Positions 9,518 through 25,937 of a stretch of DNA of 64,000 bases are shown one piece after another; within the stretch, counting starts at the first letter, position 1; each line of letters begins with the position of its first letter. Source of the stretch: Patescibacteria group bacterium (GTDB lineage Bacteria; Patescibacteriota; Microgenomatia; UBA1400; PJMF01); the NCBI GenBank assembly GCA_039934415.1, contig JBDTME010000001.1:442461-506460 (forward strand), read 5' to 3'. Below the pieces are notes generated by a model. The model saw nothing but the letters and a program-made list of their open reading frames with translations. It did not search any database and was not told the DNA's origin. Both the position numbers and the translations under genes were made by a program.

Positions 9518-9592
9518 TCCCCGATAGCTCAGCGGTAGAGCAGGAAGCTGTTAACTTCAAGGTCCTAGGTTCGAATCCTAGTCGGGGAGCCA
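9518..9592 (+). tRNA. tRNA-Asn (anticodon GTT)
   Basis: Hand-folded cloverleaf. 7-bp acceptor stem TCCCCGA/TCGGGGA, D-arm GCTC-AGCGGTA-GAGC and anticodon loop CTGTTAA. T-arm is CTAGG-TTCGAAT-CCTAG, with discriminator G and an encoded CCA. Confidence 0.9.
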
Positions 9593-11164: not shown

Positions 11165-12451
11165 TCAACTTGGGAAATGAAGCGGAGTATGGTGACTTTC
11201 CTTTTTAGCTCGGCTGACCATTATCTCTATGATGTTATTGGATTCTTCTTTGATACTCACTGTTTTCTCACTGATGTCTAGGGGTTTAGGGTACTCAAAA
11301 GTAATTTTTTCTTGCGGGATTCGATGAAAGTATTTCAACAACTCATCAAAAATCTCAGTGTGACATTGTTCTAACCATTTGTAGGCTCGCTGCCCCTTAG
11401 TTCCAAACCAGAGCTCTCTACTAACTATTTCTTGACCGTCAAAGTAGCATGCCTCAACTCTCTTAGTTGCGTCTATGTAAGCCTCCATTTTCAAACGCAT
11501 AGTGGCTACTTGTCTGAATATATCCTCCATCTGCTCTTTTAAATCAGAATGAAGTGTGAGGGTAATGTCAAAATAATCTTTACTATGAGTTGCCTTGATA
11601 AAGGCAAAACTTTCGAAGATTTGCTTCATACTCTCTTTAGTACGTTCGGCGGTTGCACCTGCGTAAGGTGGTGAGTAATCTATGGCAACTTCATTTTCGC
11701 AGAAGTGAACAAGTTCTTTTTTGTTATCAATAAAGTCATTAAAATTTCTATCTAACTTTTCTTTACACTCGTACCAGCTAAGAGCTGTTACTCCTGGTTT
11801 TCCAATATCTCGTTTAGTGCAATAGTATCCTTGGCCAGTTGTTACAGTTTTTCCTTCTAGAACATTGTTATCAATCCACTGGTTGATTTTTAGTTGTTGT
11901 TTTGCAACTTCCTCAGCCCATTCCTTTTTGAGGTAAAAGTCTCCATCTCTTAAAGCCATTTGCACTTCATCTACGTGCCAGTCTGTAAGTTCACCTTTTG
12001 ATTTGAAGTAATGCAACGCCTCTTGCTCTGCTAAGCATTCAATAGTGAAGACAGCTGAAAACTCTTCAGTACGAAGTTTTTGATAGAGTTCTTCAAATCC
12101 TTGTTCAGTTAGGACTTTGGGTAACCATTTGAGTTGAAGCAATAATACGTCCGCTGCAATACTGAACCTAAGTAGCCGATAAATCGCATCTAATTTTGAT
12201 GCAAAGTACTGTAATTGGAGTGTCATAGTTTGTAAGTCACCATCCATCATGGCTTGTAGCGTGTAAATTAAGCTTGCGTAAAAGTTATATTCATTGATTT
12301 GGGCATTCGTAATGCCAGCCTTTACTGCTTCAATTTCGTGGGTGTAATTTCTGTCCTCAAGCTGTTCTTTGACAGAGTATTCAGCCACTAACTTTGCCCG
12401 TTCTTTGGCGGTGAGTACTTTGCTGATATTGTTGAGAGAAAAGTTTTTCAT
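11165..12451 (-). CDS. hypothetical protein (element-encoded)
   Basis: 428-aa ORF with no recognisable motif. 4-nt overlap with the downstream 12448..12831 ORF. Confidence 0.5.
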   Translation of the reverse strand: MKNFSLNNISKVLTAKERAKLVAEYSVKEQLEDRNYTHEIEAVKAGITNAQINEYNFYASLIYTLQAMMDGDLQTMTLQLQYFASKLDAIYRLLRFSIAADVLLLQLKWLPKVLTEQGFEELYQKLRTEEFSAVFTIECLAEQEALHYFKSKGELTDWHVDEVQMALRDGDFYLKKEWAEEVAKQQLKINQWIDNNVLEGKTVTTGQGYYCTKRDIGKPGVTALSWYECKEKLDRNFNDFIDNKKELVHFCENEVAIDYSPPYAGATAERTKESMKQIFESFAFIKATHSKDYFDITLTLHSDLKEQMEDIFRQVATMRLKMEAYIDATKRVEACYFDGQEIVSRELWFGTKGQRAYKWLEQCHTEIFDELLKYFHRIPQEKITFEYPKPLDISEKTVSIKEESNNIIEIMVSRAKKESHHTPLHFPS

Positions 12452-12831
12452 TTTGACCTCTTCTCAATTGTTCTGCGTTCGAAAATGACTCGCTCAATTG
12501 TTTCTAAGCGCTTACTTAGGTCAGCAGCCTCAATAGCTTTGAGTAAATGACCAGTCAAGTAACCAACGGTGTTGGCTATATTTGGAGGAATACTGCCATC
12601 TCTCACGCCGTTGATTGTTTGTTCAAGTAAGTCGATAGCATTATCGGGATCTCTCAATTGCAAAGGATCAAGGCTAATCAGTTCTTTTTTTGAAGAGTTT
12701 TTGCCACCTTCGGTTACTGCCGCAGCATGTTGCTCACGAGTGGCTGGATTGTGGGTAAAGCAGAACTCAGCATTCTTCATAGCATTAGCTTGGCATTGCT
12801 GATCGTTAGCTTTGAGATAAGTACATTGCAT
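12448..12831 (-). CDS. hypothetical protein with Cys/His cluster (element-encoded)
   Basis: CQANAMKNAEFCFTHNP possible zinc-binding motif. 127 aa. Confidence 0.4.
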   Translation of the reverse strand: MQCTYLKANDQQCQANAMKNAEFCFTHNPATREQHAAAVTEGGKNSSKKELISLDPLQLRDPDNAIDLLEQTINGVRDGSIPPNIANTVGYLTGHLLKAIEAADLSKRLETIERVIFERRTIEKRSK

Positions 12832-12880
12832 AGTTTTTCTCCTGATTTGTTAGTTACGCTTATGGGTGGAGGGGTGAAAA

Positions 12881-15226
12881 TTAGAACAGCGTCTGACGCA
12901 CCATTTCCTCCATATTTTCTTCATTTTTGTTGCCAATGCTGCCTATGTTGCCATCGGTTGAAGCTGTTGTAGTGGCTGATGGTTCTGGTTTAGAACCGTT
13001 GGTAGCTTGTTTGCTAATCGTGATGTACGTTCCCGCCAACTCTCGGTTCTTTGTGACATCCAGACCGTAAGCCATCAAATTAGGACGCACGTCCTTAATC
13101 TTTCTCCAAAGCCAGTTAGGGGATTTCGGGAAGCCTTTCTTGATTTTGAGTTTGTCGGCTTGAGCTTCCAATACATCAAATAGCTCGGAGCTTTTACCGA
13201 TCCAGTCACTCGTTTGGGTAGACATAAACTCAATCAAGGTTTGGGCGACGGCTGATGACTCAACAGCTTCTTCGTTTTGTTGGCGAACGTTCTGATTGAA
13301 GGCTCCAAGTAAGTCTTCTTCGGTAAATCCGAAGTGCATGGCAGCTGCGGTGGCATATTTGAAGTAGTCAGCCATTCTTGGTTTGGTGTGGAGTTTAAGA
13401 GTAGGAGCGAGTTTGAGCGTCGTTGCCACAGCATCAAACAATGATCCTAGTAGTAGAGGCTTGAGTTCTTCAAAATCATGCCAAAGGAACTTTTCTTCCT
13501 CACGTTGTGAGTCAGGAATTCTTTCCAAAGGAACGATAATGCTACGATCTAAGAGATCTGGGCGGGTGGCTACTTGGTTGATGCCACAAATACCAGCCAC
13601 ACGCTTGTAGGCATACAGTACGTCCTCATCATCAGTAAAAAGTTGGCGTTTGGTGAAGCCATCACCAGTGATCAGACGACAGAGGGCATCAGATAGGCTT
13701 GGGGAAATATCAGACAAGTTATCGAGAAAAAGTGCGTAGTGGTGACTTGCGAACTGAACGAGTTCACGAATGGAGTCAGGTGGTGTTAGAAGAGCAACCT
13801 GACTGGGGTCAATTAACTCTCTTAGTAACCTGAGAAGTGTTGATTTGGCTGAACCTTGATCGCCATGAAGAATGAGCATGGCTCGGGGAATATCAGGGAT
13901 GAGACTGGCCACTAAGAACGTCAAGACGAGCAGTTTATGTTCATCCGATTTGATATTCATAAACTGGGTGATTTCACGGAGATTGCCACCTCTTTTGGGT
14001 AAGACCTGGGCTTGCTGATGAGAAAAGCGTCTAAAGTAAACAGGAGCTTCTACTTCAACACTCCAACCTTCGGCAGTGATCTTAACAATATGCGTGTTAT
14101 CACCCATGTCATAGTAAATAGCTTTGCCTTTTCGCCCTACTCGGTTGAAAACCTCTATGGCTGGTCGATCAAAGGTAGCAATACCTTGCAGAGTTTTAAT
14201 CACAGCGCTGACTGCTTCTGAGCCAGGCGGTTTACCTTCTTGATCCCAATACATTTTGAATAGTAGTTGCTTAGTGGAGTCTGAATCGATTTTGTACGAT
14301 AAGAACGGCGTATGAGGTAAGGTCAGAACAGGTTCTTTAAACTGATTAGTGAAGAGTTTAATGGATGAAGATAAAACCATACCAACAAGTATTTGTGCTT
14401 GGCTTGGACGTTCGGAGCCACCTTGTGGACTGTTTACTGCCTTCTGTGAAATAGAGTTATAGACAGCTTCAATTTCTGAGCGAGGTAATGGAGGTTTGTT
14501 AAGCTGGTTCCAGGCTAAAAGTAAAGGCAAAGCAACTCTTTGCCACTCATCCTGAGGTAAGTATTTGAGGAGAAAGCCAACTACTTTGGCAGCTGAGTCA
14601 TTTCGTTTTGATTCACCGACCCCTTCAAAAATATTTTCTTCTGATTTGACTGTGGCACTCAGTTTGTCTTTGGTGGGTGGCTGCTGTAGCTGCTCGATGA
14701 GACCTGTTGGTAATTCAGCAAAAGAGATTTCGGTAGGTGACTCGAGCCAATAGTATTGATTTCCGCTGGGATGCTTTGAGGGAGGCAAGATGGCATATCC
14801 GCCTTCACCTCTAAAATCAGTTTTCTCTATGAAACTCGTAGCATTAGGAATCTCAAATTCAGGCGGTCTAAAGAAGTAATGGTGTCCACCTGAGCCTGTC
14901 TGTGAATGTGGCGTTTGGGGAAGTGTTTTAGTGTCAAATTTTGAGCCTTGGTCGAGATCTAAAACAACCACACCAGAAATCTTGCCTGTCACTAAAGCCA
15001 AGCCAGTTAGGCTTTTATGAGCTGACCATTTTTCAACTTCTTCGAGCGTAGGCTTCCTGTCTTGGAATTCTTTCCACTTAATTAGTGGCTTCTTCTCTGA
15101 ACCAATGGGGATGATTGACCAACCAAGTTCTAGATAGGTTTTGCCAAGCTCTAGCCATTCTTGTTGGGTTGATGGTGTTTTATTTGATATAGTACTCATA
15201 CATCTGTGGATAGAGGGCAAGTTCAA
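12881..15226 (-). CDS. bifunctional primase-polymerase (Prim-Pol) / P-loop NTPase replication protein (phage/plasmid P4-type)
   Basis: N-terminal WSIIPIG...KWKEF...GLALVTGKISGVVVLDLD (Prim-Pol catalytic DxD region). Central Walker A LILHGDQGSAKSTLLRLL (D5/DUF3987-like helicase domain). Length 781 aa. Confidence 0.8.
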   Translation of the reverse strand: MNLPSIHRCMSTISNKTPSTQQEWLELGKTYLELGWSIIPIGSEKKPLIKWKEFQDRKPTLEEVEKWSAHKSLTGLALVTGKISGVVVLDLDQGSKFDTKTLPQTPHSQTGSGGHHYFFRPPEFEIPNATSFIEKTDFRGEGGYAILPPSKHPSGNQYYWLESPTEISFAELPTGLIEQLQQPPTKDKLSATVKSEENIFEGVGESKRNDSAAKVVGFLLKYLPQDEWQRVALPLLLAWNQLNKPPLPRSEIEAVYNSISQKAVNSPQGGSERPSQAQILVGMVLSSSIKLFTNQFKEPVLTLPHTPFLSYKIDSDSTKQLLFKMYWDQEGKPPGSEAVSAVIKTLQGIATFDRPAIEVFNRVGRKGKAIYYDMGDNTHIVKITAEGWSVEVEAPVYFRRFSHQQAQVLPKRGGNLREITQFMNIKSDEHKLLVLTFLVASLIPDIPRAMLILHGDQGSAKSTLLRLLRELIDPSQVALLTPPDSIRELVQFASHHYALFLDNLSDISPSLSDALCRLITGDGFTKRQLFTDDEDVLYAYKRVAGICGINQVATRPDLLDRSIIVPLERIPDSQREEEKFLWHDFEELKPLLLGSLFDAVATTLKLAPTLKLHTKPRMADYFKYATAAAMHFGFTEEDLLGAFNQNVRQQNEEAVESSAVAQTLIEFMSTQTSDWIGKSSELFDVLEAQADKLKIKKGFPKSPNWLWRKIKDVRPNLMAYGLDVTKNRELAGTYITISKQATNGSKPEPSATTTASTDGNIGSIGNKNEENMEEMVRQTLF

Positions 15227-15250
15227 GACTCACCCTCTATCTCTTTCCTT

Positions 15251-15634
15251 TTATTTCGACGCTGGCATTACTTCACTGATAATCTGCCATCCTTCGGTAT
15301 CACCAGGTTTGTTCTTAACTAAGATCTGGCAAGCTTTACCTACCAGATCATTGAAACTAATCTCTTGTTCAGTTTCAGGTTGAGTTCCAAGTAGAGCGGT
15401 GACGATATCGAACAGCTTGGAGTTCTTTTTGCCTTTCCTCAGAGTAAGTTTTGCTATAGTTGAGCGTTCCGTTCCTTTATTATCACCATCAGTGATCTCA
15501 AACTTTAGCTTCAAGAATGTGCCATACTCGCCTTCGCCTTTATCTATCTCGGTGAGTTTGGCTTTGTAAACTCCTACTGGAATCGGTTCTGGTATGCTTG
15601 ATTCTTGAACTGTTAATATGATGTTTGCTGACAT
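15251..15634 (-). CDS. hypothetical protein (element-encoded)
   Basis: 127-aa ORF immediately downstream of the primase gene. No motif. Confidence 0.4.
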   Translation of the reverse strand: MSANIILTVQESSIPEPIPVGVYKAKLTEIDKGEGEYGTFLKLKFEITDGDNKGTERSTIAKLTLRKGKKNSKLFDIVTALLGTQPETEQEISFNDLVGKACQILVKNKPGDTEGWQIISEVMPASK

Positions 15635-15684
15635 AATTTTTTCCTTTAATAATTTGTTTTTAAATTGGGTTCACTACTTTTTCT

Positions 15685-15972
15685 TCACATATTTCCTCCT
15701 TCCTCTGGCATCAATAACTCAAGAGCTTTTTGAGAAATGGCTTCTTCAATCTCTTGACCAACCTCATAGTTGATTGGGTAGAAAATGGGTATTTCTGTAC
15801 CGTTATTGAGTTTTTTTGTGGGATAGACACAACGGAAGCCGTTGCCATCTCTGCGAGTAAAGACAGCTATATTGCCTACATAAAAACTGTGGTCGATCAC
15901 AAAGTTGGCAAAGAAGGTAAGGCCATTACTCGTGCGAATAGGAAGTAACTCGATCTCACTGATGGTTTTCAT
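15685..15972 (-). CDS. hypothetical protein
   Basis: 95-aa ORF overlapping the next ORF by 17 nt. Confidence 0.35.
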   Translation of the reverse strand: MKTISEIELLPIRTSNGLTFFANFVIDHSFYVGNIAVFTRRDGNGFRCVYPTKKLNNGTEIPIFYPINYEVGQEIEEAISQKALELLMPEEGGNM

Positions 15973-16165
15973 AGGCTTGTGCCTCCTTATCTTGTTTTTC
16001 TAATCGGTCGATTACTTGCAAAAGGAGTTCAGCCATTGAATGAAAAGAGCTCGCAACGAGCTTGTCCCGCTTTTCTTCAAGCTTAGGTTTGAGGGAAGTG
16101 ATGGGTTGTAGACTAGATTTTTCTACGTTTTCTCCAAATGACATGAAAGTATTTGACCATCTCAA
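15956..16165 (-). CDS. hypothetical small protein
   Basis: The ORF track start is TTG at 16163-16165. The first ATG would be at 16142-16144. Confidence 0.3.
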   Translation of the reverse strand: MRWSNTFMSFGENVEKSSLQPITSLKPKLEEKRDKLVASSFHSMAELLLQVIDRLEKQDKEAQAYENHQ

Positions 16166-16243
16166 TAGAGTATTGAGGTCAATACCCAGTTAGGGGCAAT
16201 TTTCAGAGGAAGGCAAACAAAAAAGGCCTCAATAGGTATTGAG
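16161..16243. promoter_or_regulatory. two copies of a 7-N2/3-7 palindrome CTCAATA-N-TATTGAG (operator candidate)
   Basis: ctcaatagagtattgag at 16161-16177 and ctcaataggtattgag at 16228-16243. Located in the 5' region of the 15956..16165 minus-strand gene. Confidence 0.4.
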
Positions 16244-16269
16244 ACCTAACAGAAAGATGAAAGTGAGAT

Positions 16270-17208
16270 TTAATTATCTTCGATTATGGGAGTAAGAAGT
16301 ATTCTATACGCACCAGGCTGTGCATCCCTTGATTCAATTGAAATGTAATCTTCAGCAGGCTTGCCTTTTATTTTTTCATCTCGAATCTGAGAAAGAATCT
16401 GTCTTACTTCGTCTGATGTTGAATTTGTAAGTGTAGCGAGTCTTTTTACTTCGACCCAAGCATCTTTAAATAGTGTAAGTCTCTTGAAGACCACACACCT
16501 CTTATTTTCAGCTGAGGAAAATACAAGAGTTATTCCATCAGTGATTTGAAAAGTTTTGCCGTCCTTTCTCCAACCGATCGATGCTCGCCAATTACCCACT
16601 TCTGATTGCATTGCATTGTTGTTAATTTTGGCGACTGAGCTTGCTAAAGCTATAACAGCTTCCTGATATTGTTGCTCCCTGGCGTTTTTCTCATCGATAT
16701 ATGACCAATCAATTTCTTCTAAAAAGCTAGATATGCGGTCTGGCTCTCTGTATGACATTGCGGAAGGCGGAGGTAAGTAGAAGGTTTCTTTGAGTTCGGG
16801 AAGTAACAATGGGAGTTTATTTACGCTTACTATTACATCAGCTAGTTTTCGAAGTGTTTGCTGAGCCATCTCAACCATTTGACGGAGTGGTTCCCAAAAT
16901 GACGTAGTTATTTCATCGATTACTCTAAGAAGCGGGCTTTCGATACGGACAACGGTGGATATTCCCATCGCTAGTTCAAGGTAGACAGGCTTAAATTGAG
17001 TAGCTGCAACAAGGGCTTCATTCCTAAAAGTGAGAACGGATTGAAGTGACTCAAACAACCTAGTTGTTGGGTTTGCTATTTCAAGTAAAGGGCTTAAATT
17101 AGGAACAGCATTAACAAAACCATCTGAGAACCGAACCATTTTGTCATTGATTTCCTTGGCTTGCTCATCGGTTAAATACTCTATTTTCTTTGCAGATAAT
17201 TCTGGCAT
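16270..17208 (-). CDS. hypothetical protein (element-encoded)
   Basis: 312-aa ORF. No motif. Confidence 0.45.
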   Translation of the reverse strand: MPELSAKKIEYLTDEQAKEINDKMVRFSDGFVNAVPNLSPLLEIANPTTRLFESLQSVLTFRNEALVAATQFKPVYLELAMGISTVVRIESPLLRVIDEITTSFWEPLRQMVEMAQQTLRKLADVIVSVNKLPLLLPELKETFYLPPPSAMSYREPDRISSFLEEIDWSYIDEKNAREQQYQEAVIALASSVAKINNNAMQSEVGNWRASIGWRKDGKTFQITDGITLVFSSAENKRCVVFKRLTLFKDAWVEVKRLATLTNSTSDEVRQILSQIRDEKIKGKPAEDYISIESRDAQPGAYRILLTPIIEDN

Positions 17209-17309
17209 AGTCGCTACTTTTTTGATACATTTTCATGACACGAGTGAATTTTAGATTACCAGTAAAAAGCACGAATGTGAAGTACTGGGGATATTGATAT
17301 ACTAATAAT

Positions 17310-17939
17310 ATGACAGTAAATGAAATCTACACTAAATATAGAACTCCAAATAATTTACAACAACACATGCTTCGAGTCGCAGCCTTATGCACTGTAATAG
17401 TTTCCAGTTGGAAAGGTGAACCGATTTCAAAAGAAGACATCGTTAACACTCTTCTTTTTCATGATATTGCTAAACCAGTTACATTTGATATTGCTAACCA
17501 GGCTAGGTTTGTTAGCTCGCCAGAGGAACTAGTTCGGCTTGAGCAAGATATCAAGTACTTAGTTGACAACTTTGGTTCGGAAGAGCATCAAGCAGCCCTT
17601 AAAATTTTTCAAGACATAGGGTTGAACAAAAACTGTCAGAGATTAATTAATAATTTGGAATGGCACAATACGGATGATCTGATGCGAGTTAACGATATCG
17701 AGTCATTACTGACGATTTATTGTGATATGAGGATTGGTCCTAAAGGAGTGCTTTTAATTGAGCAGAGATTGAGCGAGCTTAACGCTCGTAATCCAATAGA
17801 AGACTTTGAAAAAAGGTTAAAATCAGCCAAAGATCTCGAGAATCTCATTATAGGCAAAGTTCCAATTAAATTGGACGAAATTAAAGAGGAGCAAATATCC
17901 CCAATTGCTGAAATGCTATCCCAAAAGCAATTCAACTAG
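17310..17939 (+). CDS. HD domain protein (putative metal-dependent phosphohydrolase)
   Basis: HMLRVAAL ... LLFHDIAKP gives the H...HD...K arrangement of HD-superfamily metal ligands. Confidence 0.55.
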   Translation: MTVNEIYTKYRTPNNLQQHMLRVAALCTVIVSSWKGEPISKEDIVNTLLFHDIAKPVTFDIANQARFVSSPEELVRLEQDIKYLVDNFGSEEHQAALKIFQDIGLNKNCQRLINNLEWHNTDDLMRVNDIESLLTIYCDMRIGPKGVLLIEQRLSELNARNPIEDFEKRLKSAKDLENLIIGKVPIKLDEIKEEQISPIAEMLSQKQFN

Positions 17940-18211
17940 AACTCAAATAGCTCACGAACCTTAGCCTTTAGGCCTTTGGCAATCTTAATCAGATAACGAA
18001 CAGAAGTGTTGACGTAACCATTCTCAATCTTAGCTAGATAGGAGACGTTAATGTCAGCTTCATCTGCTAAATCCTCTTGAGTCAGCTTGCGGTCATTGCG
18101 AAGCTTCTTGATTGTCAGTCCTAGCTGCACACGTTCTTTTTGATATTCGTTCTTTTGTTGGTATCTACTTGGCATCTCCCCATTATTTGGGGACTTGCCA
18201 TAAACTACCAT
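17936..18211 (-). CDS. XRE-family helix-turn-helix transcriptional regulator
   Basis: LTIKKLRNDRKLTQEDLADEADINVSYLAKIENG is a typical Cro/CI HTH. Confidence 0.75.
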   Translation of the reverse strand: MVVYGKSPNNGEMPSRYQQKNEYQKERVQLGLTIKKLRNDRKLTQEDLADEADINVSYLAKIENGYVNTSVRYLIKIAKGLKAKVRELFEF

Positions 18212-18276
18212 TCCATATATGGAAACATTGGTATATAATCACAAGAACCAGACGTAGAACTCAGAAAGGAAAATGT

Positions 18277-18822
18277 ATGAAAAAAGTAGCAATGATTGGT
18301 GGAGGCATATTTTTGCTTCTCATTATTATTGGAGCCGCCTCAGGTGGTAGTAAAACTGAAAAAGTTGGCTCGACGAGCGACACTTCCCAAGTAGCCACAG
18401 CACCTTCTTCTCAACCTCAACAAGACACAAAATATAAAGTAGGCGATCAAGTGAAAATGGGTGATGTGATTTTGACAGTCAACAAAATGGAAAAATCACA
18501 AGGTGGGCAATTCACTAAGCCGAGTGAAGGCAATGAGTGGATTAACCTCAACATGACCATTGAAAACACTGGGTCAAAGCAAGAGTACGTCACTACCTTG
18601 GGTCAGATGTACGTTGTTGATAAAGACGGTAATCAATATCAGATAGCTGTTACCAATAAGGCAATGGAAAACATCAACAACTCTCTTGATGGTGCAGTAG
18701 TCGCCAAAGCCAAGAAGACTGGGTGGGTTGGTTTTGAAGTACCTAAAACAGCTACTGGCTTAACCTTCCGCTACAACGCTAGCTTCTGGAATGACAAAGC
18801 CATCCTAGTTGAATTGCAATAA
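18277..18822 (+). CDS. DUF4352 domain lipoprotein/secreted protein
   Basis: Signal/TM MKKVAMIGGGIFLLLIIIGAASG preceded by an RBS aggaaa. YKVGDQVKMGDVILTVNKMEKS...EGNEWINLNMTIENTGSKQEY pattern of DUF4352. Start moved to the internal ATG at 18277. Confidence 0.6.
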   Translation: MKKVAMIGGGIFLLLIIIGAASGGSKTEKVGSTSDTSQVATAPSSQPQQDTKYKVGDQVKMGDVILTVNKMEKSQGGQFTKPSEGNEWINLNMTIENTGSKQEYVTTLGQMYVVDKDGNQYQIAVTNKAMENINNSLDGAVVAKAKKTGWVGFEVPKTATGLTFRYNASFWNDKAILVELQ

Positions 18823-18989: not shown

Positions 18990-19976
18990 ATGACCATTAA
19001 ACAGGCCACAGATTTATCGAAACAAATACTCCAAAAGCTTGGTTTTAGAGAAGAAGAATGTGATCTAATTTCCCAAAATCTCATAGAAGCTGAATTGGCT
19101 GAAAGAAAGACGCATGGTTTGATAAGGCTGCCAGCTATTGCTCGAAATGTAAAAAACGGGAGTATTAAGGTTACGCCAGAGGACATTGAAATTATTGCAG
19201 AGCATCCAGGCTCTTTGCATTTTGATGCTAAGCATAAACCAGGCTTCTACGTTCTTTATAAATCGCTAGAGATAGCTATTAAGAAAGCAAAAGTTTCTGG
19301 GATCGTGGCAGTAGCAATTAAAGATCTGGAGTATGCATCAGGCTACATTGGTGACTACGCTCGGCTAACAGCAGAACAAGATCTAATTTTTATTGGCTTC
19401 CATAATTCACCTGGTGGATTAGTTCCTCATGGGACAACAAAAGGCATTTGGGGTACAAATCCTATTACTATATCTGTACCCACCCAACAAATTCCAGTTA
19501 TTTTAGATATGGCTTCGTCTCAATCAACTTGGGGTGAGTTAATGGTTGCAAAAACTGAAGGTCGATCAATTAAAGAAGGTGTAGCAATTGATTCGGAGGG
19601 GAATGTAACTGTTGACCCTGCTAAAGCCATGGAAGGGGGTATTCTTCCCATAGCTGGTCATAAAGGTTCTGGTTTGGCATTTATAGTAGAACTTCTAAGT
19701 GGAGCGTTGAGTAACTCTAGAGTTGGAGGTGCTGTTGAGGGCGGCTGGGGTTCATTTTACATCTTGATTAACCCTGCTTTCTTTAGGGACCTGAGTGATT
19801 TTAAGAATGATGTCGAAGCAGCTATTCAAGAGTTAAAGTCTACACCTAAAGCAAAAGGCTTTAATGAGGTCTTCTTCCCAGGGGAGCAATCTTACTATAA
19901 GCGAAAAAGTAACCTCGAAAGAGATGAAATTGATATCAGTGAAAAACTAATGGCAGATTTGGAGGGGCTAAAATGA
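18990..19976 (+). CDS. Ldh2 family (malate/L-lactate/sulfolactate dehydrogenase-like) oxidoreductase
   Basis: ERKTHGLIRLP, GYIGDYA and IAGHKGSGLAFIVELLSG are conserved Ldh_2 family blocks. Confidence 0.8.
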   Translation: MTIKQATDLSKQILQKLGFREEECDLISQNLIEAELAERKTHGLIRLPAIARNVKNGSIKVTPEDIEIIAEHPGSLHFDAKHKPGFYVLYKSLEIAIKKAKVSGIVAVAIKDLEYASGYIGDYARLTAEQDLIFIGFHNSPGGLVPHGTTKGIWGTNPITISVPTQQIPVILDMASSQSTWGELMVAKTEGRSIKEGVAIDSEGNVTVDPAKAMEGGILPIAGHKGSGLAFIVELLSGALSNSRVGGAVEGGWGSFYILINPAFFRDLSDFKNDVEAAIQELKSTPKAKGFNEVFFPGEQSYYKRKSNLERDEIDISEKLMADLEGLK

Positions 19977-20845
19977 ATAACCAAAACTTGAAAGTAGGTA
20001 TTGTTGGCTTAGGAATTATGGGCAGAGGGATGGCTAATAACTTTATCAAGAAAGGTTTCACTCTTTTTATCTGGAACAGAACTCAGTCAGTTTGTGACGA
20101 ATTCAGTAAACAAGGTGCTGTTGTTTGCTCAACGCCTGCTGAAGTTGCTCAAAAAGCAGACGTTATATTTGAAATTACTGCCAATGACGAATCTTCAAAA
20201 GAGGTGTGGATGGGAGAAAAAGGTATTCTTGCTGGAGCTAGTACTGATAAAGTACTCATTGCTAGCGCAACTCTCTCTGTAGAGTGGGTGGATGAACTTG
20301 TTGCAAAATGCAAAAATCAAAAATTTACTTTCATGGACATTGCCCTAACTGGTGGACGAGTTGGAGCGGAAACAGGTAGCTTGACTGTATTATGTGGTGG
20401 AGATGAAGCAACACTTCAACAAATTGAACCAGTCTTACAAGCGGTAGCAAAAAAGATTTTCCACTTTGGACCAGCAGGTCATGGCATGAGATATAAACTG
20501 ATTCTCAACTTCCTGCAAGCTGTTCACATCATTGGATTTGGACAGGCGATGAAAATCGCTAAAGCCTATGACATGGACCTAAAGAAAGTTAGTGAAGCTT
20601 TAGTTGATAGACCAGGAGGAACAATCACTGGAATTGCCCAAAAAACTTACTTTGAAGAACCAAACCCCATAACCTTTTCCATTGAATGGATTTCTAAGGA
20701 CCTGACTTATGCTAAGAAATTAGCTAAAAATTTAGATGTCTGTTTACTTGATGGTGTATTGAGCGAGTATAAAAAGGCGATGGAAAAGGGCCATTCGAAG
20801 AGAGACTGGGCGTCAATCAATACTCTTATTGAGGAGCAGTTATGA
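19973..20845 (+). CDS. NAD(P)-dependent dehydrogenase, 3-hydroxyisobutyrate dehydrogenase (HIBADH)/GarR family
   Basis: N-terminal Rossmann VGIVGLGIMGRGMANN and the overall HIBADH layout. Overlaps the previous gene by 4 nt. Confidence 0.8.
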   Translation: MNNQNLKVGIVGLGIMGRGMANNFIKKGFTLFIWNRTQSVCDEFSKQGAVVCSTPAEVAQKADVIFEITANDESSKEVWMGEKGILAGASTDKVLIASATLSVEWVDELVAKCKNQKFTFMDIALTGGRVGAETGSLTVLCGGDEATLQQIEPVLQAVAKKIFHFGPAGHGMRYKLILNFLQAVHIIGFGQAMKIAKAYDMDLKKVSEALVDRPGGTITGIAQKTYFEEPNPITFSIEWISKDLTYAKKLAKNLDVCLLDGVLSEYKKAMEKGHSKRDWASINTLIEEQL

Positions 20846-21468
20846 CAGATAAATTTGCCTCAACCATTCAAACATACAACAAGTTTGCACCTCAGTTCAT
20901 TCAACACTTTGAAAAGAAGTTGGATACGACTGAACTGGATAAGTTCATAGAAGGAGTACCAAAAGGTGGTTATATTCTTGATGCTGGATGTGGATCAGCT
21001 AGAGATGCAGCGTACTTCATTAGTAAGGGCTATAAAGCACTGGGTATTGATCTCTCAGATGGGCTCCTGGGTGAAGCAAAGAAAATACACCCCGAAGTTC
21101 CAACTCAACAAATGAGCTTAACTGAAATCACACTGCCTGACGCAAAATTTGACGGAGTTTGGTGTAAAGCAGCTTTGCTTCATATTGATCGAAATGACAT
21201 TCCTAAAGTACTGAAAGATTTTTATCGGATCCTCAAGCCTAACGGAGCATTATTTATTCAGACAAAAGAGGGTGAAGGTGAAGGCACTCAGCCAGTTCCT
21301 TTTGATGAAACGATGACAAGAATGTTTACCTTTTTCACCGTAGAAGAAATGGAGAAACTGGTAAAGGATGCAGGCTTTGAACTATTAGGTAGTTATGACT
21401 TCAATGGTAAGAATCGAGGTACTAACTCTCGAGATCAGGAGTGGGTAGTTATCTTTGCAAAAAAGTAA
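20842..21468 (+). CDS. class I SAM-dependent methyltransferase
   Basis: Motif I ILDAGCGSARDAAYF and motif post-I ALGIDLS. 4-nt overlap with the upstream gene. Confidence 0.8.
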   Translation: MTDKFASTIQTYNKFAPQFIQHFEKKLDTTELDKFIEGVPKGGYILDAGCGSARDAAYFISKGYKALGIDLSDGLLGEAKKIHPEVPTQQMSLTEITLPDAKFDGVWCKAALLHIDRNDIPKVLKDFYRILKPNGALFIQTKEGEGEGTQPVPFDETMTRMFTFFTVEEMEKLVKDAGFELLGSYDFNGKNRGTNSRDQEWVVIFAKK

Positions 21469-21474
21469 AAACAT

Positions 21475-22230
21475 ATGAAATTTAAAGCTCTCGTTTTTGA
21501 TCTAGATGGCACCGCCATTCCCAAAAGGCCAGATGGTATGCCTTCTCAAGCAGTGATTGACGCTGTTGCTAAAGCTAAGAAAGTCTGCCACGTTTCGATT
21601 GCCACAGGTAGACCATACTCTTTATGCGAAGATATCCTAGATGCATTGGATATTGATGATTTATGTATTGTGAATGGTGGTACCCACTTATATTCAAGAA
21701 AAACAAATGAATATGTCTGGAAACAAGAGATAGATCAGTTAGTGCTTCAAGAGCTATTCTTTAAACTTAAAGAATTTCGCCAGTATGATGTCGCTGATGA
21801 GAAGAGGCTCGATAGAGTTCCAATTGAAGAATATCGAACTGATGAGGCTATTGCTTTGGCTTGTATTTTTTCTACCACAAAACAGGATGCTCAAAAGATC
21901 ATTTCGGTTGTCAAGGGATTTAAATCCGTCACGGCTCATGCCGTTTCGTCGTGGAAAGACGGGACATTTGATATTCACATCAGCCATGAACTAGCGACAA
22001 AGAAACACGCCTTGCAATCCTTGCTCTCTAGACTAAATGTTGATCTAGACCAAATAATGGTGGCTGGTGACGGAGGGAATGATCTCCCTCTCTTTGAACT
22101 CGCAGGTTGGAAAGTGGCGATGGGAAATGGTGCTGATGAGTTAAAAGAACAAGCTGATTGGATTGCCCCTCATGTCGATGATGATGGCCTAGCGGTTGCT
22201 ATCAATAAGTTTATTTTGAAGAAAGACTAA
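21475..22230 (+). CDS. HAD-IIB (Cof-type) hydrolase
   Basis: N-terminal DLDGT nucleophile motif and C-terminal GDGGNDLPLFELAGWKVAMGNG. Confidence 0.8.
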   Translation: MKFKALVFDLDGTAIPKRPDGMPSQAVIDAVAKAKKVCHVSIATGRPYSLCEDILDALDIDDLCIVNGGTHLYSRKTNEYVWKQEIDQLVLQELFFKLKEFRQYDVADEKRLDRVPIEEYRTDEAIALACIFSTTKQDAQKIISVVKGFKSVTAHAVSSWKDGTFDIHISHELATKKHALQSLLSRLNVDLDQIMVAGDGGNDLPLFELAGWKVAMGNGADELKEQADWIAPHVDDDGLAVAINKFILKKD

Positions 22231-22231
22231 T

Positions 22232-22708
22232 ATGAATTACTCGTCATTCCTTGACTCATTTTTCGAACAGATACACAAAGCTGGTCTTGATATTGCTAGA
22301 CTTCCTCTAGATCACGTTGCTTATCAAGCCTCATCATCAGAAGACTATGAGAGGCTACTACCTGAATTTTCAGCCTTAGGTGAGCTAATGAGTGAAGAGA
22401 TTATCGGGGAAAGGCGTGTCGCAGTTTTCAACTTGAGTGAGCCTATCCAATACAAAGAGTATTCGATCCCTGCTCTGGAACTCATTGAACCTCGAAGAGG
22501 CCAACAATGTGAGTCGTCTTTTCAACACGCAGAATTTGTTACAAGCAAACCTTTCGAGGAGTATATGCAGCAATATCCAAACATTAAATGGGATACAAGC
22601 TCGATGCACAGGGATGAGTTTTCCCACTTAAAGCTTAACTTTGAGAATGGACTAACACTTAAATTTCTACTTAAGCCTATCCTTGAACTTGTGGGTATTA
22701 AAAAATAA
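22232..22708 (+). CDS. YecM-like VOC superfamily protein
   Basis: DHVAYQASSSEDYERLLPEFSALGELMSEEIIGERRVAVFNLSEPIQY is colinear with E. coli YecM DHISLRCHQNATAERWRRGFEQCGELLSENMINGRPICLFKLHEPVQV. Confidence 0.65.
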   Translation: MNYSSFLDSFFEQIHKAGLDIARLPLDHVAYQASSSEDYERLLPEFSALGELMSEEIIGERRVAVFNLSEPIQYKEYSIPALELIEPRRGQQCESSFQHAEFVTSKPFEEYMQQYPNIKWDTSSMHRDEFSHLKLNFENGLTLKFLLKPILELVGIKK

Positions 22709-22722
22709 AGTACGGATTAACT

Positions 22723-23295
22723 ATGACAACTTATTTACTCCATGGTGGAGGAACTTCAAAAGATCTGGCAGGTAACGACCTCTTTTTTTCTCAGTTTACT
22801 AAATTGGTCGATAAACCTGAGGTAAAGGTTCTCTTGTGTTACTGGTCAAGGAATCAGCACGAGTGGCAAACATTGATAGAAAGAGATCAAAGCAGGATTC
22901 TCAAAAATTCAGATAAAAAAGTATCTTTCCAGGTCGCTGAAAACAGTAAGGATCTATTTGAGAAGCCTAGGGATTCTGATGTGCTTTATGTGGCTGGTGG
23001 TGATGCTGAACTTTTAGAACCATATTACAGTGAGCTGAGCAATCTAAGGAGTTCACTGAATGGAAAAATCTATGCAGGCAGCTCTATGGGAGCATTTTTA
23101 GCTTCTAACCAGTATGTATTGCCCTTTGATAGCCAGGACGATGAGTCGGTTCATGCTGGGGTGGGTTTATTACCAATTCAAGTACTCTGTCATTGGAATG
23201 TAGAAAAGAAGAAAGATTTCAAACTCAATCTTTTGTCTAACTCAAAGCCAATTATTACTTTGAACGAAGGTGAGTTTGTAGAAATATACCAATAA
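22723..23295 (+). CDS. peptidase S51 (dipeptidase E/cyanophycinase-like) family protein
   Basis: VLYVAGGDAELL and GSSMGAF (Ser nucleophile context) are typical of S51. Its stop overlaps the next start (TAATG). Confidence 0.6.
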   Translation: MTTYLLHGGGTSKDLAGNDLFFSQFTKLVDKPEVKVLLCYWSRNQHEWQTLIERDQSRILKNSDKKVSFQVAENSKDLFEKPRDSDVLYVAGGDAELLEPYYSELSNLRSSLNGKIYAGSSMGAFLASNQYVLPFDSQDDESVHAGVGLLPIQVLCHWNVEKKKDFKLNLLSNSKPIITLNEGEFVEIYQ

Positions 23296-24404
23296 TGGAT
23301 GCTGGAACGATCGCAAGTATTGCTATAGAAATTATAAAGTTTGTGTTTAAACCACTCACTTTATTTTTGAAATGGGTTATTGATAAGCTCCCATTTGAGA
23401 TCAGGTGGAAAAGAATTAAATTGGGAATCATTGAGTCTAGGTGGGGCACACATACATGGGACAGAGGAAAGCAAGGTGATGAACCTGTTATTTTTGTTCA
23501 CACACGCTGGAGCTTTACTAATACTTTACCTTACAATATTACAGCTTTAAATGCCTTTCTCATTAGACCGCAGAAAGTGAAAGGCCATGCACTAATTAAG
23601 GATCCCGAAGCCAATATGTATGGTTCGTATGTAATTCCAAGTGGATATACTACGGAGGTCCATGCTGATTTCGTGATAGATGATAATAATGTAAAGTCAG
23701 AATACGAAATTTTAAAGGCAGATATAAATTTTCAGGACTCAATTGGGCGTTTACATAAAGTAAGAAATGTAGATATTTATCCGATAAAAGTAAATGCAGT
23801 AAAACAAGAGAAACTGACTGTTGAAGACTCATCAAAAATCACAAACGAAACTGAAAGAAAGTTGGTATCTGTTCTCAAAAACGAGATCCAACAATATAAA
23901 GTAAGAGGTCGTAGAGAAGGTGGACTAGGTACGGTTGATTGGCCAAGAGGAACTATTGAATGGACTCAAGCAGGTAGTACGATTCAATTTCTCTTTCAGA
24001 CCTCATCAGAAGAGCATGTGCGATCCGAACATGCGACTGCTCTACTTAACTTATATAAAAATGCAAACAAGGCCCAGAAAAAAGTTTTCATTCAAGCATT
24101 GCTTGATCGTATTGATCGGAAAAGTGAGTACAGAGACGTAGCATACTTAATTATCTTTGTTCTTTTCTTATGTGGTTTTCTCAAAGACGGACTAATAATT
24201 GCAAAAAAAGATCTACTAAACGACAAGGCCCACGGTTTCAGTGACATGCTAAGACTTATAGATTTGTTGTTGGCTTTTAGATATCAAGAATTTGATGAAA
24301 AAACATTAAACGAAATTGAGAAATTAGTTTTTTCAGTTCAAGAACACCCTTTCAGGATAAAAGAAAGAATAAATGCAATAAGAGTGAAAGGGCTGGTGAG
24401 CTGA
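23295..24404 (+). CDS. hypothetical protein, N-terminal TM anchor (no recognisable domain)
   Basis: 369 aa. Hydrophobic N-terminus IASIAIEIIKFVF and a second TM near aa 290. Translationally coupled to the upstream gene (TAATG) and to the downstream gene (1-nt gap). Confidence 0.5.
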   Translation: MDAGTIASIAIEIIKFVFKPLTLFLKWVIDKLPFEIRWKRIKLGIIESRWGTHTWDRGKQGDEPVIFVHTRWSFTNTLPYNITALNAFLIRPQKVKGHALIKDPEANMYGSYVIPSGYTTEVHADFVIDDNNVKSEYEILKADINFQDSIGRLHKVRNVDIYPIKVNAVKQEKLTVEDSSKITNETERKLVSVLKNEIQQYKVRGRREGGLGTVDWPRGTIEWTQAGSTIQFLFQTSSEEHVRSEHATALLNLYKNANKAQKKVFIQALLDRIDRKSEYRDVAYLIIFVLFLCGFLKDGLIIAKKDLLNDKAHGFSDMLRLIDLLLAFRYQEFDEKTLNEIEKLVFSVQEHPFRIKERINAIRVKGLVS

Positions 24405-24405
24405 T

Positions 24406-25356
24406 ATGGGGCACCTAATAAAAATAACTCTCAAGACAACTAAGTCGAATATTAGTATTACTGAGGGAAAAATTGGAAAGTGGTTATTTTCTTGGTCGAA
24501 TAATCAGGTCGAAGCATTTGCAGAAGCTGAATACAATGCGGGTTCTATTTCAGATCCTTTCGATCTTGTGAGAAAAACTACAAAGTTGAATTTGGCGCTT
24601 CTGATTGACTGTTTAACTATGATTGTTAATCAAGAAGTGAATACATCAATAGTTATTTCCACTGATCCAAAAATACTTGTCTATCAAAAAACTAATTCAA
24701 AAAGAGTCACATCAATACATGAAGCAAGAACTCTAACAAGGTCTATTAGACCAATATGTAATGCGAGCTCACTTGGGGAAGAGGTTCCGAAGAGAATCGA
24801 TGAGGGGGTTACCATAAACCTTTCTGAAGATCGTATAAGAATATTACGCTATTTGTTGGATTTTTTTAGCAAGAAAAAATCGTACAAAAATATTCATTTA
24901 AAATTAGTAAATTATTGGAGGAAAGGCGTTGATTTAGATCAACTCATGCTAGTTGATGAAAGCTACTTAGCATTCTTTAAAATTATTGAATACTACATCA
25001 ATAGGTCGAATGTAAAAGAGTCTGATATTCCTTCAAAGTTTCGTGAGCCAAAATCATTGCAAGATGCTTACAAGTTTTCACTTGGAACAGGTTTATCTTC
25101 TATGAAAGATGATCAACTCCAAATGATATCTGACTTTGTTCACATTCGGAACAACTGGGATATTGCCCACGTTAAAATGGGAAGCTTACCTGATGATAAG
25201 TTCGGTGGCCTATATTACTCTCATATGGATGAGGGCTGGGAATATCATAGCCACATTTGTCAGATTTCACGCTGGGTAATCTTAAAAGAGCTAGGTATAA
25301 AAGACCTGATGCTCGAGAATAATGGAGGCTTATTAGAACTATCTATTACTGAGTAA
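24406..25356 (+). CDS. hypothetical protein (no recognisable domain)
   Basis: 316 aa, last gene of the co-directional overlapping operon. No motif identified. Confidence 0.5.
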   Translation: MGHLIKITLKTTKSNISITEGKIGKWLFSWSNNQVEAFAEAEYNAGSISDPFDLVRKTTKLNLALLIDCLTMIVNQEVNTSIVISTDPKILVYQKTNSKRVTSIHEARTLTRSIRPICNASSLGEEVPKRIDEGVTINLSEDRIRILRYLLDFFSKKKSYKNIHLKLVNYWRKGVDLDQLMLVDESYLAFFKIIEYYINRSNVKESDIPSKFREPKSLQDAYKFSLGTGLSSMKDDQLQMISDFVHIRNNWDIAHVKMGSLPDDKFGGLYYSHMDEGWEYHSHICQISRWVILKELGIKDLMLENNGGLLELSITE

Positions 25357-25421
25357 TCTTTCGGATAAAGTCCCATACGGGGAGCCGTCTAAAAAGGTTC
25401 AAAACTTAAAACCAAAAAATA

Positions 25422-25790
25422 CTATTTTCTTTGATATAGTCCGACGCGATTACCTTCACTGTCTTCAAATATAGAGATATAACCATATTCTCCTATATCT
25501 TTTTTAGGTACGTGAATTTTTCCACCAGCAATTACAATCTTTTTTTCCATTTCATCAATCATATTCGTATCAAGATAAACGGTCGTACCTGTAAGACTTG
25601 GTTTATATCCAAACCCCTTCATTAATCCACCAGTTGCTCCAATACCACCTCTTTGCATAGGGAATGAGAGCATCTCATACCCTGCATTAGTTTCAGGTGT
25701 CATTTCAAAACCAAAAACTTCTTCATAAAACTTTTTTGCTCTAGCTAAATCTAGGGCTGGGAGTTCAAACCAACTTACTGGGTTCTTCAT
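25422..25790 (-). CDS. VOC family (glyoxalase/bleomycin resistance-like) protein
   Basis: N-terminal FELPALDLARAKKFYEEVFGF and a 122-aa size typical of the single-domain VOC fold. Confidence 0.75.
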   Translation of the reverse strand: MKNPVSWFELPALDLARAKKFYEEVFGFEMTPETNAGYEMLSFPMQRGGIGATGGLMKGFGYKPSLTGTTVYLDTNMIDEMEKKIVIAGGKIHVPKKDIGEYGYISIFEDSEGNRVGLYQRK

Positions 25791-25937
25791 AATGAATCCT
25801 TATTATCAATAATAATAAGTAAATTTTAGCAAAAAATTGATATGAAGTCTTATCCATGCCTAATTCGACTCAGAATGCTTGAACCTCAAACGTTTTTTGT
25901 AGTAAAATTTGTCTATAAAATTAAATAGGAGAATAGA

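Follow-up and report, generated by a model that had tools for sequence, protein, structure and literature searches.

A predicted HEPN-fold RNase and a member of an uncharacterised defence-associated family as terminal cargo of a tRNA-Asn element in a Patescibacteria genome

Within the stretch of Patescibacteria DNA analysed here (64,000 nucleotides in full; hereafter ‘the window’), two adjacent genes, A (369 aa; 23295..24404, + strand) and B (316 aa; 24406..25356, + strand), form the last two cargo genes of an integrative element of ~15.8 kb inserted at a tRNA-Asn gene. Our preferred reading, to which we give a probability of about 0.55, is that the two are independently mobile modules of defence or addiction type that have come to be stacked at this position and do not make up an obligate pair: A belonging to an uncharacterised family tied to defence islands, and B being a Patescibacteria-restricted protein of predicted HEPN fold.

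The element and its boundaries

Starting at the left-hand end, the target of integration is tRNA-Asn (GTT; 9518..9592, + strand), the sole tRNA found by ARAGORN in the window; the attL core, CGGGGAGCC (9583..9591, + strand), comprises the 3' acceptor strand, discriminator base and CC of this tRNA. Overlapping the same 3' end is a gene for a site-specific recombinase of the large serine type (516 aa; 9578..11128, − strand), the open reading frame of which crosses the att core and terminates within the tRNA gene. Its product carries a YARVSTDRQ motif at the N-terminus and resembles those encoded at two other loci, L001 (29% identity, E 6e-62) and L013 (25% identity, E 6e-30), both of which contain the Pfam domains Resolvase, Recombinase and Zn_ribbon_recom.

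The only second copy of CGGGGAGCC in the window lies at 25378..25386 (+ strand), just where the first-pass annotation had placed a 9-bp repeat of the tRNA end; the core matches at 9/9 positions and, on extension of the alignment by eye, 14/18 positions agree. Taken by itself, this 9-mer is statistically not significant as an att-type repeat, with 10 shared 9–10-mers observed between the tRNA region and the downstream DNA against ~15 expected. It becomes persuasive only through comparison with the close relative L013: nucleotide homology to the window (~86%) extends from 23206 and ends exactly at 25386, the last base of the 9-mer and the point at which a second serine-recombinase element begins in L013. 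Because of this breakpoint we take the 9-mer to be the attR core, and hence the right-hand boundary of the island, and A and B to be the last cargo genes, with no gene between B and attR. The window thus contains a serine-recombinase integrative element of ~15.8 kb (9583–25386) in the 3' end of tRNA-Asn, and the earlier proposal that A and B are the terminal cargo of such an island is borne out by the integrase at the tRNA end, the attR 9-mer and the coincident breakpoint. The predicted attB is ...CCTAGTCGGGGAGCC joined at the crossover point to GTCTAAAAAGG, and the predicted attP ...CCCATACGGGGAGCC joined to ACGTATTGC.

Inside these limits we distinguish a backbone (11165..18822, no single strand assigned; delimited from its open reading frames, Pfam matches and similarity to L013) from a variable cargo block (18990..23295, + strand). 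The backbone holds open reading frames of 428 aa, 127 aa and 312 aa and a SpoVG-like gene, together with a gene for a Prim-Pol/helicase-like protein (781 aa; 12881–15226, − strand) that has only distant matches in IMG/VR, an HD-domain insert (Pfam HD; 17310–17939), an XRE gene (17936–18211, − strand) and a gene combining a transmembrane (TM) segment with DUF4352 (Pfam; 18277–18822). Two sections (14676–16136 and 17935–18978) are ~85% identical to L013, where the matching backbone genes carry Prim-Pol, SpoVG, HTH_3 and DUF4352. The cargo block encodes, by Pfam, Ldh_2, NAD_binding_2 (HIBADH-like), a SAM methyltransferase, HAD/Cof, YecM and Peptidase_S51; in place of this entire block L013 has one 2057-aa ABC1/UbiB-like gene. 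The final ~89 nt of the S51 gene (23206..23294, + strand; delimited from the blastn breakpoint and alignment with L013) survive there ahead of A as a remnant that no longer codes, and this short section moves with the A-B cassette.

The arrangement recalls tRNA-targeting islands with integrase-distal defence cargo (satellites, IMEs and ICEs) in the abutting of the integrase on the tRNA 3' end, in the short repeat at the far boundary and in having a replication/regulation backbone with variable cargo slots, one of which differs in a close relative. It departs from them in that its recombinase is of the large serine type and not a tyrosine integrase, in its Patescibacterium host, in its six-gene metabolic cargo block and in that no capsid or terminase genes are recognised in the island and no T4SS genes in the window. 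As such, the locus offers a cleanly delimited element with exchangeable cargo slots and a hotspot for tandem integration at a tRNA-Asn-like core.

The layout of the two genes is as first described: the stop codon of the S51 gene overlaps the ATG of A (TAATG), and the TGA of A is followed, after one base, by the ATG of B. These overlaps had been read as coupling; whilst they are real, they are the local norm, the gaps along the operon being −4, −4, 6, 1, 14, −1 and 1 nt between genes of unrelated Pfam families, and so do not discriminate. The AT-richness remarked on earlier is likewise real though modest (GC 0.359 for A and 0.349 for B, as compared with 0.401 for the window), and is not distinctive; the non-island DNA just downstream has an equally low GC (0.35–0.38), for which reason we rejected composition as evidence of foreign origin. 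Scans for promoters and terminators gave signals not above chance. Comparison with L013 shows strong purifying selection on each of the two genes (dN/dS 0.067 in A, 0.076 in B).

Gene B, a protein of predicted HEPN fold

The AF2 model of B (pLDDT 84, pTM 0.85) shows two parts. Residues 1–135 (24406..24810, + strand) form an alpha/beta domain, with strands in the sections 3–41 and 89–121 (pLDDT ~90), that matches nothing in Pfam or among PDB sequences and is a candidate sensor or autoinhibitory domain. Residues 141–296 (24826..25293, + strand) form a HEPN-like helical bundle: helix 1 (162–179), helix 2 (183–200), an insert (216–228), helix 3 (235–257) and helix 4 (277–296). At the C-terminal end of helix 3, immediately before a flexible loop, sits the sequence RNNWDIAH (25147..25170, + strand; translation checked), a putative Rx6H RNase active site comprising R248, N249 and H255, which is invariant in 23/23 B homologues. 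HEPN proteins are defined by an Rx4-6H motif that either closes helix 3 or opens the loop leading to helix 4, the arginine being followed by a polar residue, N, D or H (PMC3710099); B agrees with this definition in the position of its motif, the polar residue that follows R and the 6-residue spacer. The acidic residue typical of helix 2 (Ex3[KR]) also has its counterpart in E195, invariant and located in helix 183–200; the family consensus around it is IEYxSK (Ex3K), the copy in the window reading IEYYINR. With the fold itself also conforming to that of the superfamily, we consider B, on the basis of its model, to be a new HEPN-fold protein found in Patescibacteria only and a predicted RNase. 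The initial statement that B carries no recognisable motif is therefore overturned by its invariant HEPN-type RNNWDIAH.

The four-helix bundle with an insert between helices 2 and 3, the Rx4-6H ending helix 3, the N after R, the acidic residue of helix 2 and the occurrence on mobile elements or in defence islands are all shared with HEPN proteins of Abi and toxin systems (AbiV, AbiJ/Abi_C, AbiU2, HepT of HEPN-MNT, Csm6/Csx1). In contrast to these, B matches no HEPN family of Pfam, NCBIfam or PADLOC, has a 6-residue motif spacer and a novel N-terminal alpha/beta domain of ~135 aa, has neither an MNT antitoxin adjoining it nor a CARF domain, and is confined to Patescibacteria. Profile searches with B against Pfam, NCBIfam, PHROGs and PADLOC gave no match and those against the PDB no meaningful one, and hhalign comparison with example sequences of AbiJ, AbiU2 and AbiV from fetched loci returned probabilities of ≤1%. 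Weak matches to MauJ were seen in 9/23 B homologues (best E 0.0084), spanning 30–50 residues of helix 2 only; we set MauJ aside as an identity for B because we found no paper connecting it with HEPN.

The B family comprises 26 clusters. In three diverged T4SS clusters (pilin, TrbL-like, VirB4-like, Peptidase_M23, B, HTH) B is the terminal gene, and it occurs without A in three other contexts as well, these three looking non-mobile, which counts against the preferred reading. One homologue, in L030, lies in a run of small enzymes (MTase/NUDIX, ASCH, SET, APH).

Gene A and its family

A is predicted to consist of three sections. The first (residues 1–32; 23295..23390, + strand), assigned from AF2 and hydropathy, is an amphipathic/hydrophobic helical hairpin, at the position where relatives have one or two TM helices or a TIR domain. 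Its helices (3–17 and 19–31; 15 and 13 residues, pLDDT 64–76) have a best KD19 value of 1.68, with 3 charged residues in that segment, and a muH of 0.43. The second (residues 44–163; 23424..23783, + strand) is an Ig-like beta-sandwich. The third (residues 185–368; 23847..24398, + strand) begins with a long helix, continues through a glycine/arginine-rich loop (LKNExxQYKxRGRREGxLGT) and ends in a helical bundle; this module is the most widely conserved part of the family, and separately mobile. As modelled, A has a conserved helical module and no catalytic fold. The description of A as membrane-anchored fares better for the family than for A itself: strict windows detect TM helices N-terminal of the sandwich in 45/59 distant relatives, but the N-terminus of A appears, from its sequence, to be a borderline and unconvincing TM segment; for an integral membrane protein one would look for a hydrophobic helix of ~19 residues or more.

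Searches of Pfam, NCBIfam, PHROGs and PADLOC profiles with A gave nothing usable. The only match in PADLOC-DB v2 was OloA (E 0.0075), which we take to be due to chance, and rejected as an identity, because it does not recur among 147 relatives; PDC-M49B, matched by four relatives (best E 0.011), is too weak to use. No meaningful match was returned by a profile search of the PDB, and no nucleotidyltransferase match was found, the fold being one of beta-sandwich plus helical repeat. Fold matches in BFVD were to generic TM plus Ig-like proteins, and the combination of sandwich and helical module is unmatched in PADLOC v2, Pfam and PDB sequences.

The family itself has no Pfam or PADLOC model and numbers 358 cluster representatives at 50% identity, ranging from Patescibacteria to Armatimonadota, with the subfamily closest to A restricted to the former phylum. 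Its domain architectures vary: in P0138 a ThsB/PDC-S66-like TIR domain replaces the N-terminal helices, so that TM and TIR interchange at one position among relatives; in P0203 a PD-T4-6/mad6-like Ser/Thr kinase follows the A-type C-terminal module; and this module is elsewhere fused to GGDEF or to a helical domain of ~150 aa, which we call ‘X’ (G[AS]H...EYAR..KN..YE; seen in P0176, P0142, P0192, P0109 and others). ‘X’, for which a profile search of the PDB also gave no meaningful match, has the look of a HEPN domain and would have supplied a Rosetta-stone link to B; we rejected this since ‘X’ shows no relation to B. One relative of A matches the superinfection-exclusion protein SieB. We considered and rejected a viral origin, relatives of A or B not being found in IMG/VR; tblastn with two distant A relatives did not match any plasmid either. 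From the positive residues after the TM helix and the fusions to cytoplasmic TIR, kinase and GGDEF domains in relatives, most of A is predicted to lie in the cytoplasm.

TIR and TM N-termini place the relatives of A alongside single-chain defence proteins with swappable N-terminal effectors (ThsB-like TIR/PDC-S66, TM), and the kinase that follows the A-type module in P0203 recalls defence kinases of PD-T4-6/mad6 type; A itself differs from both groups in lacking a catalytic domain of any kind, TIR and kinase included, and the likeness is one of architecture only. Homologues of A neighbour genes for Type III and Type IIG restriction-modification (RM) enzymes, KAP NTPase, GHKL ATPase, Mrr_cat, SLFN_AlbA_2, AbiV and TIR, and in four loci NucS_C/DUF5655, an association with defence that is qualitative and carries no background statistics. 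Together with the HEPN fold of B and the TIR- and kinase-fused relatives of A, these neighbourhoods agree with the defence or toxin character first suggested for both genes.

Pairing, mechanism and significance

Of 28 loci searched by tblastn, L013 and L014 alone contain both genes, their A being 91% and their B 87% identical to the window copies; across the ~13 independent A loci and ~7 independent B loci examined, co-occurrence is seen nowhere outside the window and these 87–91% identical relatives. The first-pass annotation had put the pair forward as a candidate system, and that part of its proposal is not supported by these loci: A and B are better read as two stacked, independently mobile defence-type modules than as a conserved two-gene system.

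There is, nonetheless, a possible if doubtful case for a genuine two-component system, in which A would be a membrane-associated sensor, regulator or antitoxin and B its HEPN RNase effector, as one instance of a modular ‘A plus interchangeable nuclease’ scheme. Besides the 1-nt gap, the purifying selection on each gene and the co-inheritance of A-B in L013 as one cassette that includes the ~89-nt upstream leader, this draws on what lies downstream of A elsewhere. In 7/~13 independent A loci a co-directional nuclease-like gene follows within 26 nt (gaps −4 to 26 nt), the slot directly 3' of A being filled by NucS_C/DUF5655 in four loci, Mrr_cat in one and SLFN_AlbA_2 in one, as it is by the HEPN-like B here. 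A and DUF5655 moreover co-diverge in L001, L020 and L028, and L015 has a DUF5655 relative of ~30% identity adjoining an A of 60% identity. These downstream genes hint that A may need a partner. A has no recognisable effector, and a stand-alone function is hard to imagine for it, which tells against the preferred reading. Against such a system stand the confinement of A-B co-occurrence to close relatives, the solitary occurrence of B in ~7 independent contexts and the lack of any co-directional downstream partner of A in L004, L016, L021 and L034. Homologues of A that are 83% identical to each other have differing neighbours, and the genes downstream of A have no domain in common, either mutually or with B; the ‘X’ domain fused to A-type modules is unrelated to B, tight gene spacing is normal in this genome, and nucleases are in any case common in defence islands.

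A further reading, which we regard as unlikely, is that both genes serve the mobile element: B as a toxin for addiction or exclusion, or as an effector linked to the T4SS, of conjugative elements in Patescibacteria, and A as a membrane-associated exclusion or maintenance protein. That B closes three diverged T4SS operons, that serine-recombinase elements carry these genes both here and in L001, L013 and L034, and that one A relative matches SieB would all fit such a role, but the window lacks T4SS genes, classical antiphage genes overwhelmingly predominate among the neighbours of A, and the predicted cytoplasmic bulk of A suits sensing better than surface exclusion. That the two genes play an ordinary accessory or metabolic part alongside the upstream operon (S51 peptidase and others), as the TAATG overlap, the S51-A adjacency ancestral to the window and L013 (seen in the remnant) and the L030 homologue of B within a comparable run of small enzymes might suggest, is very improbable given the absence of S51 or metabolic-gene linkage from every other A or B locus sampled, the retention of A-B in L013 despite loss of the operon, the HEPN motif of B and the defence-type contexts and fusions of A.

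Under the preferred reading of two independent modules, the C-terminal four-helix bundle of B would form a metal-independent RNase site from R248, N249, H255 and E195, held silent by the novel N-terminal domain until a trigger arrives, which may be phage infection or a mobile element entering or being lost; the resulting cleavage of RNA would arrest the cell, in the manner of abortive-infection and toxin systems. A, for its part, may be a non-catalytic, membrane-associated sensor or scaffold in the cytoplasm, the beta-sandwich and helical module sensing or oligomerising, and the N-terminal position serving as the output end (an amphipathic hairpin here, one or two TM helices in most relatives and TIR in one). 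A bolder proposal, which we offer as speculation, would make the A family an undescribed and widespread class of membrane-tethered immune sensor with interchangeable outputs, supplied either in cis (TM, TIR, kinase, GGDEF) or in trans (downstream NucS/DUF5655, Mrr, Schlafen-like or the HEPN protein B), and A-B of the window a working abortive-infection system, indigenous to Patescibacteria, that joins a sensor to a HEPN RNase.

Genomes of Patescibacteria have yielded very few known defence systems (PMC12366544). Two defence proteins validated by experiment, LdgA and DdgA (Dallas system), are reported to be almost exclusive to this phylum and are described as having no homology, in sequence or structure, to known proteins (PMC12366544). 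They share their phylum restriction with B and the close A subfamily; as compared by published description only, identity of A or B with either is mildly argued against, because the wider A family reaches Armatimonadota and B has a recognisable HEPN fold.

In this instance, overlap coupling and island position failed to pinpoint a conserved two-gene system, and in the compact genomes of Patescibacteria translational overlap is weak evidence of functional linkage. What the locus adds is a new Patescibacteria-specific family of predicted HEPN fold, recurrent as the last gene of T4SS/conjugative clusters, and, in the A family, a concrete candidate for defence discovery by virtue of its fusions to TIR, kinase and GGDEF domains and its occurrence near RM, KAP and nuclease genes.

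The integrative element and its cargo

Two adjoining open reading frames on the forward strand have the positions and dimensions ascribed to them by the first-pass annotation: gene A (23295–24404; 369 aa) and gene B (24406–25356; 316 aa). Both are under strong purifying selection, with dN/dS values of 0.067 for A and 0.076 for B when referred to a relative ~87% identical in nucleotides. The stop codon of the preceding Peptidase_S51 gene overlaps the start of A (TAATG), and a single base separates the TGA of A from the ATG of B—spacings previously read as translational coupling. These exist as described, but equally tight gaps (-4, -4, 6, 1, 14, -1 and 1 nt) run through the operon between genes of unrelated Pfam families, so that the overlaps are what is usual here and do not point to a dedicated system. 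Scans for promoters and terminators gave nothing above chance. The suspected AT-richness is similarly real (GC of 0.359 for A and 0.349 for B, against 0.401 for the window) but carries little weight, since non-island DNA directly past the right-hand attachment site (attR) is as AT-rich. Low GC (0.34–0.38) persists for ~7 kb in that direction (25387–33000), with many short ORFs on both strands; this stretch, lying beyond the island, may be variable as well.

The only tRNA gene in the window, tRNA-Asn (9518–9592), has the 3′ end CGGGGAGCC (9583–9591), of which one further copy lies at 25378–25386. By itself this 9-mer repeat is weak evidence for an island end: the 121-nt tRNA region has ten 9–10-mers in common with the 34 kb that follow, where ~15 would be expected. 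Much stronger evidence comes from L013, a contig from a close relative whose A and B are 91% and 87% identical to those of the window. The two share segments of an island backbone (14676–16136, 17198–17282 and 17935–18978) and the A–B cassette (23206–25386), with homology ending at 25386, the final base of the 9-mer; beyond this point L013 runs into the 3′ end of another large serine recombinase gene, part of a second element. The window has its own large serine recombinase ORF (9578–11128; 516 aa), overlapping tRNA-Asn, whose product has homologues with the Pfam domains Resolvase, Recombinase and Zn_ribbon_recom. At attL of the window CGGGGAGCC is followed by the base A and then the end of the recombinase gene, and in L013 by the same base and then the end of its own recombinase gene; to the left of the attR core there is likeness to the tRNA T-arm and acceptor (14/18 positions, in an alignment judged by eye). 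From the breakpoint in L013 and the recombinase overlapping tRNA-Asn, we conclude that 9583–25386 is an integrative element of ~15.8 kb carrying A and B as attR-proximal cargo, which bears out their earlier placement at the island end.

The second serine recombinase element of L013 (12052–13668, 12084–12092) lies in tandem with the first, inserted at its attR core. As the recombinases of L013 and the window are only 25% identical, the tRNA-Asn-like core seems to be a hotspot that different elements of Patescibacteria can reuse. Both recombinase ORFs cross the att core (window 9578–9592; L013 12052–12092) and take their stop codon from the flank—the tRNA gene in the window, the 3′ end of gene B in L013—so the C-terminus of each should differ between integrated and excised forms.

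Six genes separate the DUF4352 gene (18277–18822) from A, assigned by Pfam as Ldh_2, an NAD_binding_2 dehydrogenase (HIBADH-like), a SAM methyltransferase, a HAD/Cof hydrolase, YecM and Peptidase_S51. This metabolic block (18979–23205) is island cargo too, and its position in L013 is occupied by one giant ABC1/UbiB-kinase-like gene (3729–9902; 2057 aa). In L013 the final ~85 nt of S51 are still present ahead of A as non-coding sequence, indicating that the S51–A–B order is ancestral and the L013 arrangement derived. L013 lacks a ~650-bp segment (17283–17934) that holds an HD-domain gene (17310–17939), and the sequences on either side almost meet there; this seems to be a second, small slot for variable cargo in the backbone.

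Gene B, a predicted HEPN RNase

B found no match in any profile library tried, nor among PDB sequences, and it belongs to a very small family of 26 clusters, none labelled by Pfam and every named source belonging to Patescibacteria. The structure check proposed alongside the original description was more productive: a confident AF2 model (pLDDT 84, pTM 0.85) comprises a beta-rich N-terminal domain (residues 1–135) and an HEPN-like helical C-terminal half (residues 141–296), the latter bearing R248-N-N-W-D-I-A-H255, a block without variation in the family alignment. That alignment also shows E195 to be invariant and contains an NYWRKG motif. HEPN domains are defined by an Rx4–6H motif where helix 3 ends and passes into the helix 3–4 loop; by a polar residue after the R, mostly N, D or H; by a spacer that may be six residues long; and by an acidic residue in helix 2, usually within Ex3[KR] (PMC3710099). 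The alignment and AF2 model of B agree with all four: the motif closes helix 235–257, before a flexible loop and helix 277–296; N249, which follows R248, is invariant; and E195 lies in helix 183–200, where the consensus is IEYxSK. A further helix (216–228) is inserted between helices 2 and 3. On this match to each of the four published features, B is a HEPN-fold protein and predicted RNase, placed outside all named HEPN families.

Gene A and its changing neighbours

No model for the A family exists in PADLOC v2 or Pfam. A first search returned 39 homologues, whose named sources were all Patescibacteria; an exhaustive profile search extended this to 358 representatives (clustering at 50% identity; 78 at E ≤ 1e-30), with Armatimonadota MAGs among the sources. 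Homologues 47–49% identical also occur in L015 and L016, contigs labelled ‘Woesearchaeota archaeon’ and ‘uncultured Gammaproteobacteria’ MAG respectively, which could be mis-binned Patescibacteria contigs or reflect inter-phylum transfer.

In the AF2 model of A (pLDDT 85), a short helical hairpin (residues 3–31) precedes an Ig-like beta-sandwich (44–163), a long helix with a Gly/Arg-rich loop (LKNExxQYKxRGRREGxLGT) and a helical bundle (245–368). The N-terminal membrane anchor suggested by the first-pass annotation is doubtful in A itself, but 45 of 59 distant relatives carry one or two strict TM helices there, trailed by basic residues, implying that most of an A-type protein is cytoplasmic. 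Other relatives are fusions: P0138 has a ThsB/PDC-S66-like TIR domain where the N-terminal helices would be, whilst after the C-module P0203 adds a PD-T4-6/mad6-like Ser/Thr kinase and P0184 a GGDEF domain. An uncharacterised helical ‘X’ domain of ~150 aa (invariant pattern R..R, Y...S..G.H, E.AR...N..YE) follows the A-type C-module in P0176, P0142, P0192, P0188, P0197 and P0174, and forms the C-terminus of P0109; the domain matched no PDB sequence and showed no relationship to B.

Gene contexts were compared at ~13 independent Patescibacteria loci and two distant ones. Upstream of A are Type III RM Mod and Res (L001), a KAP NTPase (L003), a GHKL ATPase (L018) or a Type IIG Eco57I-like enzyme (L019); TIR, KAP, PDDEXK, STAND and radical-SAM genes are also found nearby, and a small resolvase adjoins one distant family member. 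Immediately downstream (gap of -4 to 26 nt) come Mrr_cat (L018), SLFN_AlbA_2 and then HEPN_AbiV (L019), B in the window, and NucS_C/DUF5655 proteins at four loci (L001 9121–9990; L020 1128–2000; L028 539–1453; L015 3047–3760). The last, a ~290-aa protein, is the commonest neighbour of the A family; it shows 77–88% identity among three loci and ~30% in the fourth.

Independent modules or a sensor with its nuclease

The main rival to a reading of A and B as independent is that A acts as a sensor paired with whichever nuclease sits downstream, here B. A nuclease slot does recur behind A, and A and DUF5655 co-diverge; against this, A–B co-occurrence is absent outside the near-identical relatives, B is solitary, some A loci have no partner, A homologues of 83% mutual identity have differing neighbours, and the downstream proteins share no domain among themselves or with B that might serve as a common adaptor. 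We therefore regard the pairing as a tentative alternative, with the odds against it.

In three diverged loci B is the final gene of a T4SS-type cluster (pilins, TrbL-like, TraC-like, VirB4-like, Peptidase_M23, B, small HTH gene), with RM, SNF2 or AbiJ genes close by; three more B loci look non-mobile, and none of the six has an A homologue. The A–B ‘pair’, put forward as an undescribed system, is thus not a conserved system. The T4SS-type clusters (L007 2816–9200, L008 2641–9003, L029 1960–8225) have two pilin-like genes and a PrgI-like gene ahead of the TraC-like one, and no relaxase was recognised within the stretches seen. There are no T4SS genes in the window, and we think it improbable that A and B serve mobile-element maintenance or exclusion. 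That they are metabolic helpers, beside the six-gene block, deserves very little credence.

Our preferred reading, with a probability of about 0.55, is that A and B are defence-type modules, each mobile on its own, that have come to lie one behind the other at the cargo end, the defence association being judged qualitatively from gene contexts. Fold, motif, fusions and context suggest roles for each. B would be a HEPN RNase that its N-terminal domain restrains until infection, or perturbation of a mobile element, sets it free; A may be a cytoplasmic sensor or scaffold associated with the membrane, with the N-terminus as the probable output end (hairpin, TM helices or TIR, depending on the member). 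LdgA and DdgA, defence proteins without known homology validated in a 2025 study, occur ‘almost exclusively’ in Patescibacteria (PMC12366544); A or B may be one of these, the two published proteins being compared by description only. The family of A is unannotated and bears clear hallmarks of defence, but we assign it no mechanism; B is a predicted new member of a well-known kind, the HEPN toxins.
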